This document shows positions 57,001 through 63,000 of a stretch of 64,000 nt of DNA, in pieces. The position numbers are program-made. The stretch lies in assembly GCF_003019035.1 (NCBI RefSeq), contig NZ_CP027447.1; one strand, 5' to 3'. Origin of the DNA: Escherichia coli. GTDB taxonomy: Bacteria > Pseudomonadota > Gammaproteobacteria > Enterobacterales > Enterobacteriaceae. Numbering within the stretch: the first letter of the stretch is position 1; each line of letters begins with the position of its first letter.

Positions 57001-60000
57001 CGAAAAATCAGTATCTGAGTACGGCGATGAAACAAAAAATTTGGCATCGCGCTTTATTGCATCGAAAAAATAATCCGAAAGCAGATTCTGCAGCATATGA
57101 AACCAGCGCTGATATGATTTTGTCGGAGCTTATCAGCTACGGTGAAGTTGATGACCAGATGCTATTAAATGCCGCCTCTCTGATACGTTCGGAAGGCTGG
57201 GACTTTTTAGAGAGTGCATTAGTTAGTTGGGATAATTTACCCGCTGTTGTCCTCAAGGAATTACAGCAAAATATGCCACGCAATGATATTTGGGCGAAGT
57301 TTTTTCTGAGGCAGGAAAACAGCTCTCGTGCGCAGGTTAACGAAGCGTTACGTGTTTATTATGCACTAGACCCCGATGCGTTAGCACAACTGGATGTACT
57401 GGCAAAACAACCGGATCGTATATGGTGGAGTACACTGGCGAAAAGCAATCTCACATTTTTCAAGTTCGGCGCACTTAACAACCGCCACACACCGCCTGCA
57501 GTACTGGCGGCAGAAATTGATCCCGAGTGGTGGATTGTGGCGATGAATAATCCCCGTTTTCCAGTTGATGTATTAAAGGCGAGGCTGAAACGTGATCCTT
57601 TGCTGGCGTTAGAGCTTGTTAACCCTGAACTGGATTTAGTCCGCCAGCTGGCGCTTAACGGTAAGACGCGCGCAATACGGGAACAAGCGATGAGAAAACT
57701 TGATGAGTTGTATTGAATAACAGCGTAATAATTTTTAACCACTTGATTTATTGGGGATAATCATTCCTGACGGTGAGTCCCCAATACCTTGATATATTCT
57801 GAATTTTTAATGAAGCGGCGTGTTGCGATATCTCCGTCAGGGGAATTGATGCACCATAGCGCAAACCGAATTATCAAGGATTGATAATGACGCTATACCA
57901 GATAAAACCGCTCTTTCAGTCGCTGTTAAGGCCGACGATGTTTTGGCTTAATAAGCACCATGTTACAGCGAATCACATCACTCTTGCTGCACTGGCGCTT
58001 TCTCTTCTTACCGGATTGCTGTTGATGTTGGTGGCACAACCCATCCTCTTTTTGCTATTGCCTATCGTGCTTTTTATCCGTATGGCGCTCAATGCGCTGG
58101 ATGGCATGATGGCGCGTGAGTGCAATCAGCAAACACGTCTTGGGGCGATTTTGAATGAAACTGGCGATGTTATTTCCGATATTGCGCTTTATTTACCGTT
58201 TTTATTTTTACCGGAAAGTAACGCATCACTCGTAATACTCATGTTATTTTGCACCATATTAACTGAGTTTTGCGGTTTACTCGCGCAGACGATTAACGGT
58301 ATTCGCAGTTATGCCGGTCCATTCGGCAAAAGCGATCGTGCGTTAATATTTGGGTTGTGGGGGCTGGCTGTTGCCATTTATCCACAGTGGATGCAATGGA
58401 ATAATCTTTTATGGAGCATTGCTTCAATTTTGCTTCTCTGGACTGCGATTAATCGTTGTCGAAGTGTGCTCCTGATGAGTGCTGAAAGATAATGCTGGAA
58501 AAATCTCTGGCAACACTTTTCGCGTTGTTAATTTTAGCAACGCTGATAAACCGTTTTCTGATATGGCGGTTACCGGAGGGAAAAGGGGGTGAGGTTACAT
58601 TACGTATTCGTACCTGGTGGGGCATCGTCATTTGTTTTTCACTGGTGATTTCAGGTCCACGCTGGATGACGTTGACGTTTTTTGCGCTGATAAGTTTTCT
58701 GGCATTGAAAGAATATTGTACGCTTATATCCGTACATTTTCCGCGTTGGTTATATTGGGGTATTCCTCTTAACTATTTGCTTATTGGTTTTAATTGCTTT
58801 GAGCTGTTTCTGTTATTTATACCTTTGGCTGGGTTTCTGATATTAGCCACATGGCGAGTTTTAGTGGGTGACCCCTCCGGTTTTCTGCATACCGTGAGCG
58901 CCATTTTTTGTGGCTGGATAATGACCGTTTTCGCCTTGAGTCATGCCGCCTGGTTATTAATGTTGCCAACCACAAATATCCAGGGCGGGGCGTTACTGGT
59001 GTTATTTCTTTTGGCATTAACCGAGTCAAACGATATTGCACAGTATTTATGGGGAAAATCCTGCGGCAGAAGAAAAGTGGTCCCTAAAGTCAGCCCGGGA
59101 AAAACATTGGAAGGTCTGATGGGCGGCGTAATCACCACCATGATTGCGTCACTGATTATTGGACCGTTGCTGACACCGCTAGATACATTACAGGCATTAT
59201 TAGCGGGTTTGTTAATTGGTATTAGTGGTTTTTGCGGCGATGTAGTGATGTCAGCCATCAAACGAGATATTGGTGTTAAAGATAGTGGAAAACTATTACC
59301 AGGACATGGCGGACTCCTTGACAGGATTGACTCATTAATTTTCACCGCTCCGGTATTTTTTTATTTTATTCGCTACTGCTGTTACTGAAGGAAAACAGAG
59401 AAAATGGAAAATTCACGCATCCCTGGGGAGCATTTTTTTACCACCAGTGATAATACAGCGTTGTTTTATCGGCACTGGCCCACTTTACTGCCAGGGGCGA
59501 AAAAGGTCATCGTCTTATTTCATCGCGGTCATGAACATTCTGGTCGTCTACAACATATCGTTGATGAACTGGCGATGCCAGATACTGCTTTTTATGCCTG
59601 GGATGCCCGAGGGCATGGACAAACTTCGGGGCCGCGTGGTTATAGTCCGTCTCTTGCGCGTTCAGTGCAGGATGTCGATGAATTTGTCCGTTTTGCTGCC
59701 AGCGGCAGCCAGGTCGGACTGGAAGAGGTGGTTGTGATCGCGCAAAGCGTCGGCGCAGTGATGGTTGCTACATGGGTTCATGATTATGCGCCTGCTATTC
59801 GCGGGCTGGTGCTGGCTTCTCCGGCCTTTAAGGTTAAATTGTATGTGCCGCTGGCACGTCCTGCGCTGGCGTTATGGCATCGTCTGCGTGGTCTGTTTTT
59901 TATTAATTCCTATGTGAAAGGACGCTATTTGACCCACGATCGGCAACGGGTGGCGAGTTTCAATAATGATCCGCTGATCACACGGGCGATTGCCGTTAAT

Positions 60001-63000
60001 ATCTTGCTCGATCTTTATAAAACGTCTGAACGTATTGTTAGCGATGCGGCGGCGATTACGCTCCCCACGCAACTTCTGATATCAGGCGATGACTATGTGG
60101 TGCATCGTCAACCGCAGATTGATTTTTATCAGAGATTACGTAGCCCTCTGAAAGAGCTGCATCTGCTGCCAGGCTTTTATCACGACACGTTGGGTGAAGA
60201 GAACAGGGCGCAGGCATTTGAAAAAATGCAAAGCTTTATTAGTCGTTTATATGCTAACAAGTCACAAAAATTTGATTATCAGCATGAAGACTGCACAGGA
60301 CCATCAGCGGATCGATGGCGGCTACTTTCTGGTGGACCCGTGCCATTATCGCCGGTTGATTTGGCGTATCGCTTTATGCGTAAGGCGATGAAATTGTTCG
60401 GGGCGCACTCTGCGGGCCTGAATCTCGGAATGAGCACCGGCTTTGATTCAGGCAGTTCGCTGGATTATGTCTATCAAAATCAACCGCAAGGTAGTAACGC
60501 ATTCGGGCGTTTAGTCGACAAAATCTACCTGAACAGTGTTGGCTGGCGCGGTATTCGCCAGCGCAAAACCCATTTACAAATACTGATTAAACAAGCCGTT
60601 GCCGATCTCCACGCCAAAGGTTTAGCCGTCCGCGTGGTTGACATTGCCGCAGGGCATGGGCGCTATGTACTGGATGCGCTGGCAAACGAGCCTGCCGTAA
60701 GCGATATTTTGTTACGTGATTACAGCGAGTTAAATGTTGCACAGGGGCAAGAGATGATTGCTCAACGGGGAATGTCTGGGCGGGTGCGTTTTGAACAGGG
60801 CGATGCGTTTAACCCGGAGGAACTCAGCGCGTTAACTCCGCGGCCTACGCTGGCGATTGTCTCTGGCCTGTATGAGCTTTTTCCCGAAAATGAGCAGGTA
60901 AAAAACTCCCTCGCAGGTCTTGCCAATGCCATCGAACCGGGTGGCATTCTCATCTACACCGGGCAGCCGTGGCACCCACAACTGGAGCTGATTGCCGGGG
61001 TGTTAACCAGTCATAAAGATGGTAAACCGTGGGTAATGCGCGTGCGTTCGCAAGGGGAGATGGATTCGCTCGTGCATGATGCCGGATTCGATAAATGCAC
61101 ACAACGGATTGATGAATGGGGTATTTTTACGGTTTCGATGGCGGTGCGTCGTGATAACTGAACGCCGGAACGTATTGCTACAAGGAGCTGGCTGGTTATT
61201 GTTGCTGGCCCCGTTTTTCTTCTTCACCTATGGATTTCTTAATCAGTTCACCGCGACTAAGGATCTTAACAACCATGATATCCCCAGTCAGGTATTCGGT
61301 TGGGAAACGGCGATCCCTTTTCTTCCCTGGACTATTTTGCCTTACTGGAGTCTGGATCTTTTATATGGATTTTCGCTGTTCGTTTGTAGCTCGACATTTG
61401 AGCAGCGCCGTCTGGTCCACCGGCTTATTCTGGCAACGGTAATGGCCTGCTGCGGTTTTTTTCTCTATCCGCTGAAGTTTAGTTTTATCCGTCCTGAAGT
61501 GAGTGGGGTGACAGGATGGTTATTTTCGCAACTTGAATTGTTTGATCTGCCTTATAACCAGTCTCCTTAGCTGCATATTATTCTCTGCTGGCTACTTTGG
61601 CGTCACTTTCGTCAGCATCTGGCTGTGAGGTGGCGTAAAGTCTGCGGCGGATGGTTTTTACTCATCGCCATTTCGACGCTAACGACCTGGCAGCATCATT
61701 TTATTGATGTCATCACAGGGCTGGCGGTAGGTATGTTAATTGACTGGATGGTGCCCGTAGACCGTCGTTGGAATTATCAGAAACCTGATCAACGTCGAAT
61801 CAAAATAGCACTGCCATATGTCGCAGGCGCGTGCTCGTGCATTGTGTTGATGGAGCTAATGATAATGCTTCAGTTATGGTGGTCAGTCTGGTTATGTTGG
61901 CCAGTATTATCGCTATTCATTATTGGCCGTGGGTACGGTGGGCTTGGCGCGATAACAACAGGTAAAGATAGTCAGGGGAAACTCCCGCCCGCCGTTTACT
62001 GGCTGACATTGCCATGGCGCATCGGGATGTGGCTGTCTATGCGTTGGTTTTGTCTTCGCCTTGAGCCAGTGAGCAAAATTACTGCTGGTGTTTATTTAGG
62101 GGCGTTTCCACAACATATTCCGGCACAGAATGCGGTTCTGGACGTCACCTTTGAATTCCCTCGCGGACGAGCCACAAAAGATCAACTCTATTTTTGTGTA
62201 CCGATGCTGGATCTGGTGGTTCCGGAAGAGGGGGAGCTCCGACAGGCCGTGGCGATGTTGGAAACATTACGCGAAGAGCAAGGCGGCGTTCTGGTCCATT
62301 GCGCGTTGGGATTATCGCGCAGTGCGCTGGTGGTGGCGGCATGGCTGTTATGTTACGGACATTGTAAAACCGTTGATGAAGCGATTAGTTATATTCGAGC
62401 CAGACGCTCGCGGATTGTGCTTAAGGAAGAGCACAAAGCGATGCTGAAATTATGGGAAAACAGGTAAGCGGATTGAGATGTGGACTGAATATCTACAGTC
62501 CACATCAAAATAGTGTCCGGTTATGCAGCAACAATACTGTCGATGGCTGCTTTCGCGTCAGACTGTGCTTTCGCTGCCATTTCCGGGCCGTACGCGATCC
62601 CTTCGGCGAAGACAAATTTCACATCGGTAATGCCGATAAAGCCCAGGAATGTGGACAGATACGGCGTTACCAGATCCGTTGGGCCATCTTTATGGATCCC
62701 ACCGCGGCTGGTAATCACGATGGCTTTTTTACCCGTTACCAGACCTTCCGGACCGTTCTCGGTATAGCGGAAAGTAACGCCTGCACGTGCAACCAGGTCA
62801 AAATAGTTTTTCAACTGAGTCGAGATGTTGAAGTTATACATCGGTGCCGCAATAACGATAACGTCGTGGGATTTCAGCTCGGCAATCAGCTCATCGGAAA
62901 GCGCCAGCGCTTCCTGCTGACGCGGAGTCAGCGGCGCATCGCTCGGACGCAGCGCACCAACCAGTTCGCCATCCAGCACCGGAATCGGATTTGCAGCCAG

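Follow-up and report, generated by a model that had tools for sequence, protein, structure and literature searches.

The ynbABCD genes occupy positions 57887-62467 of a 64,000-nucleotide stretch of Escherichia coli DNA (contig NZ_CP027447.1 of assembly GCF_003019035.1; this whole stretch is hereafter the window). Our analysis suggests, tentatively and at somewhat short of an even chance, that they are the E. coli remnant of a six-gene module that makes and processes a minor glycerophospholipid by a head-group route dependent on CDP-diacylglycerol (CDP-DAG). That the ynb genes form one pathway around a core of YnbA, YnbC and YnbD is well supported, because the homologues of these three lie side by side, recur with the same partners and in some cases are found as YnbA-YnbC fusions. 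In E. coli itself the module is accessory, dispensable and eroding, and in the window ynbD is interrupted by a stop codon.

At the 50% identity level (E <= 1e-30) the YnbC family falls into about 400 clusters, and a locus scan with a 10-sequence alignment as query and one genome per species confirmed at least 501 relatives, of which the best 80 loci were analysed. These loci come from Enterobacterales, Pseudomonas, Burkholderiales, Neisseriales and Rhizobiales, spanning the Gamma-, Beta- and Alphaproteobacteria, and from metagenome-assembled genomes (MAGs) of Acidobacteria. YnbA, YnbC and YnbD homologues were adjacent in essentially all of them (about 78 of the 80), the exceptions being mostly contig ends or loci with ynbA on the opposite strand; at one locus (L067), YnbA and YnbB homologues were not found in the fetched flank. 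In addition, a YnbB homologue was present in 65 of the 80 loci, a PlsC-type acyltransferase of about 213 amino acids (aa) with NHxxxxD and FPEGTR motifs (PF01553) in 64, and a small membrane protein of 130-145 aa without a Pfam match, here called X, in 75. The gene order is A-C-D-X-acyltransferase-B in Pseudomonas and Burkholderiales, A-B-acyltransferase-C-D-X in Citrobacter, Enterobacter and the Chromobacterium group, and A-C-D-X in Providencia, Morganella and Xenorhabdus. Furthermore, YnbA and YnbC are joined in two natural fusion proteins (P0123, 807 aa; P0150, 927 aa). A sequence-only reading of this DNA had described the four genes as a self-contained head-group pathway and had proposed a survey of their neighbourhood across Enterobacterales. 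The survey found the A-C-D unit conserved beyond that order and argues strongly for a single, self-contained pathway, of which the E. coli version is incomplete; any order of steps is a proposal, and the ynbD allele in the window is dead. As for protein X itself, it comes after ynbD (for example at L005 13031-13432, L013 13224-13622 and L056 13095-13529) and is hydrophobic, with stretches that probably span the membrane; a W-R-L-W-L-D-x-R-(L/Y)-F-like motif recurs in the enterobacterial copies.

The E. coli operon contains neither the PlsC-type acyltransferase nor X. In Citrobacter pasteurii and in an uncultured Enterobacteriaceae genome the six-gene cluster directly adjoins azoR, as the E. 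coli operon does, which suggests a loss of the acyltransferase and X in E. coli at this very locus. Otherwise YnbB and the acyltransferase come and go together, and a YnbB without the acyltransferase is nearly unique to E. coli.

In the window, ynbABCD is a real annotated unit and no chance arrangement. The whole window matches the chromosome of E. coli SCU-301 (NZ_CP051751.1) at 100% identity; in this human rectal isolate RefSeq annotates pdxI, ydbD, ynbA, ynbB, ynbC and ynbD in this order on one strand, followed by the convergent azoR. The features of the four genes are the following:

57887-58492, forward strand: ynbA, divergent CDP-alcohol phosphatidyltransferase family protein of 201 aa (PF01066)
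58091-58180, forward strand: YnbA active-site motif N69-x2-D72-G-x2-A-R77-x8-G86-x3-N90-E91-x2-D94-x3-D98
58492-59388, forward strand: ynbB, CdsA paralogue, CDP-DAG synthase of 298 aa (PF01148 and PROSITE signature)
59404-61161, forward strand: ynbC, alpha/beta hydrolase (aa 1 to about 275) and class I S-adenosylmethionine (SAM) methyltransferase (about 275-585) (PF12146, PF12147)
61151-62467, forward strand: ynbD pseudogene, sphingomyelin-synthase-like PAP2 membrane domain (aa 1 to about 270) and dual-specificity phosphatase (about 305-438)
61568-61570, forward strand: premature TAG in place of Ser140 (TCG) in the P-S-L-H motif of YnbD (RefSeq 'internal stop')
62297-62323, forward strand: dual-specificity phosphatase P-loop HCALGLSRS (Cys384, Arg390), 3' of the stop codon (motif match)

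The tight packing of four genes on one strand that had been read from the sequence was confirmed at each junction. The gene ynbA runs from its ATG at 57887 to 58492, and its stop codon overlaps the ynbB start in the shared TAATG at 58490-58494. A gap of 15 nucleotides (nt) separates the end of ynbB at 59388 from the start of ynbC at 59404, and ynbD either overlaps the ynbC stop codon (TGA, 61159-61161) or abuts it, depending on the start codon: GTG at 61151, which RefSeq chooses for intact alleles, gives an 11-nt overlap, and TTG at 61175, its choice for the pseudogene in the window, a 13-nt gap. These start and stop codon overlaps count towards functional coupling. Consensus scans for internal promoters and terminators did not rise above shuffled sequence (4 promoter-like matches against 8.0 expected and 6 terminator-like matches against 6.6). 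Moreover, Pfam, family models and structure comparison upheld the domain assignments proposed for all four proteins, and the quoted motifs were located at YnbC 113-117 (AQSVG), YnbD 182-187 (HHFIDV) and YnbD 383-391 (HCALGLSRS).

YnbB matches CTP_transf_1 (PF01148) with 233 bits (E = 6.4e-69) and carries the full CDP-diglyceride synthase signature noted earlier, the PROSITE PS01315 pattern S-x-[LIVMF]-K-R-x4-K-D...H-G-G-x-x-D-[RK]-x-D, at residues 254-280 (window 59251-59331); its score against the NCBIfam CdsA equivalog (111, cut-off 385) is that expected for a paralogue. According to the literature, YnbB synthesizes CDP-DAG in vitro, its overproduction raises the glycolipid MPIase, and upon CdsA depletion it restores MPIase and not bulk phospholipid synthesis; both ynbB and cdsA are cold-induced. 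Deletion of ynbB leaves the MPIase level essentially unchanged (a marginal effect), and the gene is dispensable, the mutant growing normally. YnbB resembles CdsA in its full signature, its homologous C-terminal half, its activity in vitro and the effect of its overproduction on MPIase, whereas its N-terminal half is unrelated, it cannot replace CdsA for bulk phospholipid, and it is non-essential and encoded in a conserved accessory cluster. The link to CdsA-like activity and MPIase that had been mentioned with the sequence stands in the literature for YnbB alone, nothing having been found there for YnbA, YnbC or YnbD.

These data bear on an alternative in which the operon is a backup or dedicated MPIase route: YnbA, rather than YnbB or CdsA, would join CDP-DAG and N-acetylglucosamine (GlcNAc)-1-phosphate into GlcNAc-PP-diacylglycerol (GlcNAc-PP-DAG), and YnbC and YnbD would trim the product later. 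The overproduction and CdsA-depletion results and the cold induction fit such a route, the later MPIase enzymes are explicitly left unassigned in the literature, and the Asn residues that replace two acidic metal ligands in YnbA (see below) could, speculatively, suit an anionic phosphate nucleophile. We nonetheless consider it quite improbable. Besides the unchanged MPIase level in the ynbB deletion, about 15-21% of complete E. coli genomes lack the operon or have only part of it, and the window carries it truncated, although MPIase is reported to be essential; the cluster has no glycosyltransferase and is also conserved far from the Enterobacterales, in Pseudomonas, Burkholderiales, Rhizobiales and MAGs of Acidobacteria; and the published data come from YnbB without YnbA. 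The operon does have a bearing on MPIase biosynthesis, as YnbB is one of only two enzymes implicated in it.

YnbA, which had been called a CDP-alcohol phosphatidyltransferase, belongs to that Pfam family and departs from its canonical signature. It passes the PF01066 (CDP-OH_P_transf) threshold weakly (37.5 bits, cut-off 22, E = 4e-9) and does not match the PROSITE PS00379 pattern DGxxARx8GxxxDxxxD. Asn stands at the canonical first and third Asp positions, D1 (Asn69) and D3 (Asn90), in 77 of 77 aligned YnbA sequences, all of which share the motif N-A-x-D-G-M-L-A-R-E-x2-Q-x-[ST]-x-L-G-x3-N-E-x2-D-x3-D; D2, G, A, R, G and D4 are retained, and invariant Glu91 and Asp98 follow. Since the Asn substitutions are universal among YnbA orthologues, they point to a functional variant and not to decay. 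In Mycobacterium tuberculosis PgsA1, D68, D71 and D89 coordinate Mg-1, and Mg-2 is bound by D89 together with D93, the latter also being the presumed base (PMC6506517); with Asn at the positions of the ligands D68 and D89, the metal site of YnbA must differ. The YnbA proteins define a natural subfamily of CDP-alcohol transferases without two "essential" Asp residues, which is of mechanistic interest.

The closest characterised relatives of YnbA use phosphorylated inositol. Its NCBIfam scores are 75.5 bits for archaetidylinositol-phosphate synthase (AIPS; cut-off 180), 49.6 for phosphatidylinositol-phosphate (PIP) synthase (cut-off 170) and 29.2 for PgsA, all under the curated equivalog cut-offs (NF045883 and NF040950 for PIP synthase and AIPS); the same ranking, with AIPS first and PIP synthase second, ahead of PgsA and PssA, was obtained for 24 of 24 family members, again with scores far under the cut-offs. 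Among solved structures the family profile matched the PIP synthase PgsA1 of M. tuberculosis best (6h53, E = 1.6e-11). In that enzyme Arg155 and Arg195 bind the acceptor phosphate, and Arg94 is conserved in users of inositol phosphate (PMC6506517). YnbA Arg151 and Arg190, both invariant, align with the first two, and the position of Arg94, directly after D4 (Asp94), is taken by a hydrophobic residue (Val, Ile, Leu or Met) in every YnbA orthologue. From the kinship with PIP synthases and the retained Arg pair we infer that the YnbA acceptor is phosphorylated or otherwise anionic. The bacterial two-step phosphatidylinositol pathway (PgsA1 or BT_1523, then a PIP phosphatase) and archaeal AIPS are therefore the nearest known systems: they transfer a phosphatidyl group to a phosphorylated alcohol and employ a separate phosphatase, and they provide the best family and structure matches of YnbA. 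They differ in the metal-ligand and Arg94 positions and in the scores far under their cut-offs; in addition, the ynb phosphatase, a Cys-based dual-specificity enzyme, shares one protein with a PAP2-like domain, and a lipase-methyltransferase is an obligatory partner in the ynb cluster. A cholinephosphotransferase was also considered for YnbA and rejected, as EcoCyc withdrew this earlier assignment and the family matches do not support it.

YnbD is a two-domain membrane protein. In intact E. coli alleles the C-terminal domain scores above threshold for PF00782 (DSPc) and has the H-C-x5-R-S P-loop with an upstream general-acid Asp; orthologues have Cys384, Arg390 and Asp354, the putative general acid, without exception. 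The membrane domain of the same alleles stays below the Pfam cut-offs of about 27 (PAP2_3, PF14378, 21.1 bits; PAP2, PF01569, 16.1 bits), many orthologues carry a precomputed PF14378 match, and S140-L-H142 (motif C2) and H182-x3-D186 with H183 (motif C3) are invariant in alignments of 26 and 36 sequences. Fold similarity of this domain to solved members of the PAP2/sphingomyelin-synthase-like group was found, with scores of 14.3 for SMSr (sphingomyelin-synthase-related protein) and 12.9 for fungal Aur1 (inositol phosphorylceramide synthase). The likeness to these head-group transferases is one of fold: identity is only 11-13%, the PAP2_3 score is sub-threshold, YnbD is fused to a cytoplasmic phosphatase, and hydrolytic PAP2 enzymes are nearly equal as matches (LpxE 12.6, PgpB 12.3). 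E. coli is not known to make ceramide, so that an acceptor of the SMSr or Aur1 type would have to differ. About 20 Lys and Arg residues lie in the predicted cytoplasmic loops against 2 in the loops with S140-x-H142 and H182/H183/D186, and from this asymmetry the PAP2-like site should be periplasmic and the phosphatase domain cytoplasmic. As a separate observation, YnbD residues 216-435 match the first 232 of the 546 positions of NCBIfam NF009025 (PRK12361, 'hypothetical protein'; E = 3.5e-28), so the membrane-tethered phosphatase unit seems to be joined to another C-terminal module in other bacteria.

The nearest structural relatives of the phosphatase domain are DUSP4 (20.1) and the mitochondrial PTPMT1 (19.0, 26% identity), and ordinary protein dual-specificity phosphatases (DUSPs) match it as well as PTPMT1 does. 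YnbD also differs from PTPMT1 and the lipid- or glycan-directed DUSPs in that its P-loop lacks the basic residues of PTPMT1 and PTEN and it does not rescue the loss of phosphatidylglycerophosphate (PGP) phosphatase. In a 2020 study in which no function was ascribed to YnbD and its deletion mutant grew normally, YnbD overexpressed from pTrc-ynbD failed to complement thermosensitive mutants in undecaprenyl pyrophosphate (C55-PP) phosphatases and in pgpABC (PMC7413402), and on this negative complementation YnbD was rejected as a PGP or C55-PP phosphatase. This result weighs on a further alternative, in which the operon is a redundant route to ordinary phospholipid, with YnbA duplicating PgsA, PssA or cardiolipin synthase and YnbD serving as a PGP phosphatase. 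The family membership of YnbA and YnbB fits this explanation, but we regard it as highly unlikely: YnbD does not complement the conditional pgpA pgpB pgpC mutant, all 24 YnbA family members scored favour inositol-phosphate transferases over PgsA and PssA by a wide margin, and the fused lipase-methyltransferase and the sphingomyelin-synthase-like domain would be left unexplained. Moreover, the presence of ynbA does not free E. coli from its need for pgsA and pssA.

YnbC combines Hydrolase_4 (PF12146, 229.9 bits, E = 3.5e-68) with Methyltransf_20 (PF12147, 504.7 bits, E = 1.1e-151), and its AlphaFold model is predicted with a confidence (pLDDT) of 95.3. In this predicted model the hydrolase domain superposes on the M. 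tuberculosis lipase Rv0183 and human monoacylglycerol lipase (MGL) with TM scores of 0.88-0.91. Ser115 (in AQSVG), Asp230 and His260 are invariant in 79 sequences, and so is the SAM motif I, D413-I-A-A-G-H-G-R-Y. The N-terminal part has the fold, the Ser-Asp-His triad and the HRGHEHSGR oxyanion-region motif of monoacylglycerol lipases, but unlike them it is always fused to a PF12147 methyltransferase. A Foldseek search with the whole model returned alpha/beta hydrolases only, and nothing was found in the literature on the function of PF12147.

More distant hydrolase-PF12147 proteins (33-39% identity) occur in other lipid gene contexts, which makes acyl or lipid chemistry a common theme of the family. 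One such protein lies beside a phosphopantetheinyl transferase gene (L088) and another two genes away from a phosphatidylethanolamine methyltransferase (PEMT)-type lipid methyltransferase (L089). A third, with both domains and 33% identity to YnbC, ends a cluster of fatty-acid-type genes (L085/L086, 3649-9779) that encodes an 81-aa product without a Pfam match (possibly an acyl carrier protein), a ketoacyl synthase, a MaoC-type dehydratase, a ketoreductase of the short-chain dehydrogenase/reductase (SDR) type and a PF10118 protein. That cluster may encode a fatty-acid-derived pathway of its own, using the same hydrolase-methyltransferase module. These contexts, together with the monoacylglycerol lipase fold, would fit a pathway centred on YnbC acyl chemistry, in which the lipase-like domain frees an acyl group, the methyltransferase esterifies or methylates it and the phospholipid enzymes supply the substrate, in the manner of BioC/BioH-style methyl-ester capping or of fatty-acid methyl ester signals. 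PhcB of Ralstonia, which synthesizes fatty-acid methyl esters, was considered as a possible member of PF12147. We think this very improbable for the ynb genes, as YnbC of the ynb-type cluster invariably accompanies the head-group transferase YnbA and in some cases forms one protein with it, which points to a membrane-lipid substrate, and as the searches with YnbC gave no pointer to the methyl acceptor.

Taken together in the head-group route that we prefer, the enzymes would act as follows. YnbB makes CDP-DAG, perhaps as a private pool, and in most species would be fed by the adjacent acyltransferase (step 1). YnbA would then move the phosphatidyl group to a phosphorylated alcohol at the cytoplasmic face (step 2), and the cytoplasmic dual-specificity phosphatase domain of YnbD would take off that phosphate (step 3), in parallel with PTPMT1 acting on PGP and PIP phosphatase on PIP. 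Cytoplasmic YnbC may edit the lipid, methylating it with SAM as donor and deacylating lyso- or mono-acyl species (step 4). After a flip across the membrane, the periplasm-facing domain of YnbD might transfer the phospho-head group to an acceptor, or cleave it and free diacylglycerol (step 5). Only the CDP-DAG synthase activity of step 1 is experimental; we infer the others from family membership, conservation, fusions and topology. The catalytic motifs invariant in orthologues, together with ratios of nonsynonymous to synonymous substitution (dN/dS) of 0.06-0.26, suggest that the ynb enzymes are active. In the window strain the pathway would end short of steps 3 and 5, ynbD being cut off at codon 140.

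Several observations weigh against this route. On the side of the enzymes, YnbA lacks two metal ligands and the Arg94 equivalent and stays far under the PIP synthase and AIPS cut-offs, so that its reaction may be a different one; the YnbD P-loop HCALGLSRS resembles, on inspection, those of protein-directed DUSPs and is without the basic residues of PTEN and PTPMT1; the two most obvious YnbD substrates are excluded by the complementation results; and the profile of the YnbC methyltransferase domain found no significant solved relative (best E = 0.016). On the side of the cluster, no enzyme that makes the head group is among its genes, none of the six conserved genes is a MIPS gene, and E. coli is not known to have an inositol-phosphate synthase. 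Finally, two of the six conserved genes are missing from E. coli, the ynbD stretch is gone from about 15% of its genomes and the region is kept at 80% coverage or more in only 79%, and no lipid phenotype has been reported in the literature. A more specific form of the proposal, in which the cluster makes an undescribed lipid class, is distinctly unlikely in our estimate: a methylated or otherwise edited phosphatidyl-X would be made at the cytoplasmic face through the Asn-site YnbA and would serve as a dedicated donor, from which the periplasm-facing half of YnbD would move the phospho-head group onto an envelope acceptor; as a variant, YnbA would attack CDP-DAG with a sugar-1-phosphate and form the pyrophosphate-linked GlcNAc-PP-DAG with which MPIase synthesis begins.

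The state of the operon in E. coli was compared among strains, and here the window departs from the sequence-only reading, which describes YnbD as a two-domain fusion: ynbD is not intact. Codon 140 of YnbD has undergone one C-to-A change, TCG (Ser) to TAG, relative to three compared loci (L002, L003 and L004). As this Ser belongs to the invariant P-S-L-H, the stop costs the membrane domain its two catalytic His motifs and the protein its entire phosphatase domain. Of 5,426 complete E. coli genomes, only SCU-301 matches the 81-nt stretch around the TAG at 100%. An open reading frame (ORF) of 280 aa that starts with GTG stays open 3' of the TAG (window 61625-62467); it takes in the latter half of the membrane domain and the full phosphatase domain.

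Of the same complete genomes, 4,275 (79%) keep the region to at least 80% coverage and 4,606 have the ynbD stretch, about 15% being without it; partial deletions or insertion sequence (IS) insertions hit the region in some genomes. In strain C7, pdxI directly adjoins azoR and ydbD-ynbABCD is missing; this segment therefore behaves as a present-or-absent block of about 7 kb. Between the window strain and a K-12-like strain, dN/dS was 0.06 for ynbA, 0.22-0.26 for ynbB, ynbC and ynbD and 0.03 for the neighbouring azoR; for this one strain pair, selection on the ynb genes is purifying but relaxed. All these data are consistent with an alternative in which the operon is a relic in E. coli, silent and in decay, that yields no physiological product at present, with only YnbB retaining a usable, generic CDP-DAG synthase activity. 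The acyltransferase and X, common in the analysed loci and present at the azoR-adjacent site in Citrobacter, are lost; the block is absent from genomes such as C7 and is damaged by deletions, IS insertions and, in the window, a nonsense mutation; dN/dS is higher in ynbB, ynbC and ynbD than in azoR, as just given; and ynbB and ynbD deletion mutants grow normally. We judge this explanation unlikely. The dN/dS values are well under 1, the catalytic residues are all intact in E. coli alleles, most genomes keep the region, the promoter has a specific mapped activator site, and a ynbC transposon mutant has polyphosphate and protein-localisation phenotypes.

Decay of the operon was also seen elsewhere. 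In Shigella flexneri SFBU1023 (L004, 9242-14325) the ynbB ORF has lost part of its N-terminus, its match being confined to residues 52-298, and ynbD is in two pieces about 1.3 kb apart, probably through an insertion element. Mixta tenebrionis (L006, 8611-12268) has an eroded operon with a truncated ynbA and with ynbB and ynbD fragments around an intact ynbC. An 889-aa E. coli protein (P0002) is a YnbB-YnbC read-through fusion (CTP_transf_1, Hydrolase_4, Methyltransf_20), the ynbB stop codon presumably being lost.

With respect to regulation and phenotypes, the literature describes the activator site at the ynbA promoter, which our analysis did not locate in the window, and a 3-fold higher ynbA transcript in a study of peptide-enhanced acid tolerance. 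The ynbC transposon mutant accumulates polyphosphate and shows delocalised LtrA, and its insertion may be polar on ynbD. What is already known is that the operon is annotated and that the link between YnbB and MPIase is published. The earlier statement that the whole operon has no defined product agrees with our survey of the literature: no work on ynbABCD as a unit was found, the papers up to 2026 discuss only YnbB, and the 2020 paper had ascribed no function to YnbD. Likewise, no publication was found on the six-gene ancestral cluster, on the A-C-D core and the A-C fusions, on the universal Asn-Asn active site of YnbA, on the split topology of YnbD or on the strain-specific ynbD knockout.

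The phospholipid metabolism of E. coli is regarded as essentially complete, yet the species holds a conserved set of lipid enzymes without an assigned product, and the same set is found in Pseudomonas, Burkholderiales, Rhizobiales, other Proteobacteria and Acidobacteria MAGs. The full six-gene version, for instance that of Citrobacter or Pseudomonas, is a better object of study than the trimmed E. coli copy or the allele in the window. The expectations for it would be a YnbA-YnbC-YnbD core, a phosphorylated acceptor and a two-sided YnbD with a cytoplasmic phosphatase and a periplasmic domain resembling head-group transferases.

Two further features lie upstream of the operon:

55404-57716, forward strand: ydbD, DUF2773 protein, GC content 0.433, outside the pathway
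57717-57886, forward strand: ydbD-ynbA intergenic region of 170 nt with the ynbA promoter region, GC content 0.388

The ydbD product has 770 aa and is named 'DUF2773 domain-containing bactofilin' by RefSeq. It was considered as a member of the pathway and rejected, as no YdbD homologue lies beside the cluster in other genera; because of this absence, ydbD looks like a separate low-GC acquisition within the same variable block. The AT-richness ascribed earlier to ydbD and the whole operon holds for ydbD (GC 0.433), ynbA (0.446) and ynbB (0.434) and not for ynbC (0.509) or ynbD (0.490), the mean of the window being 0.502.

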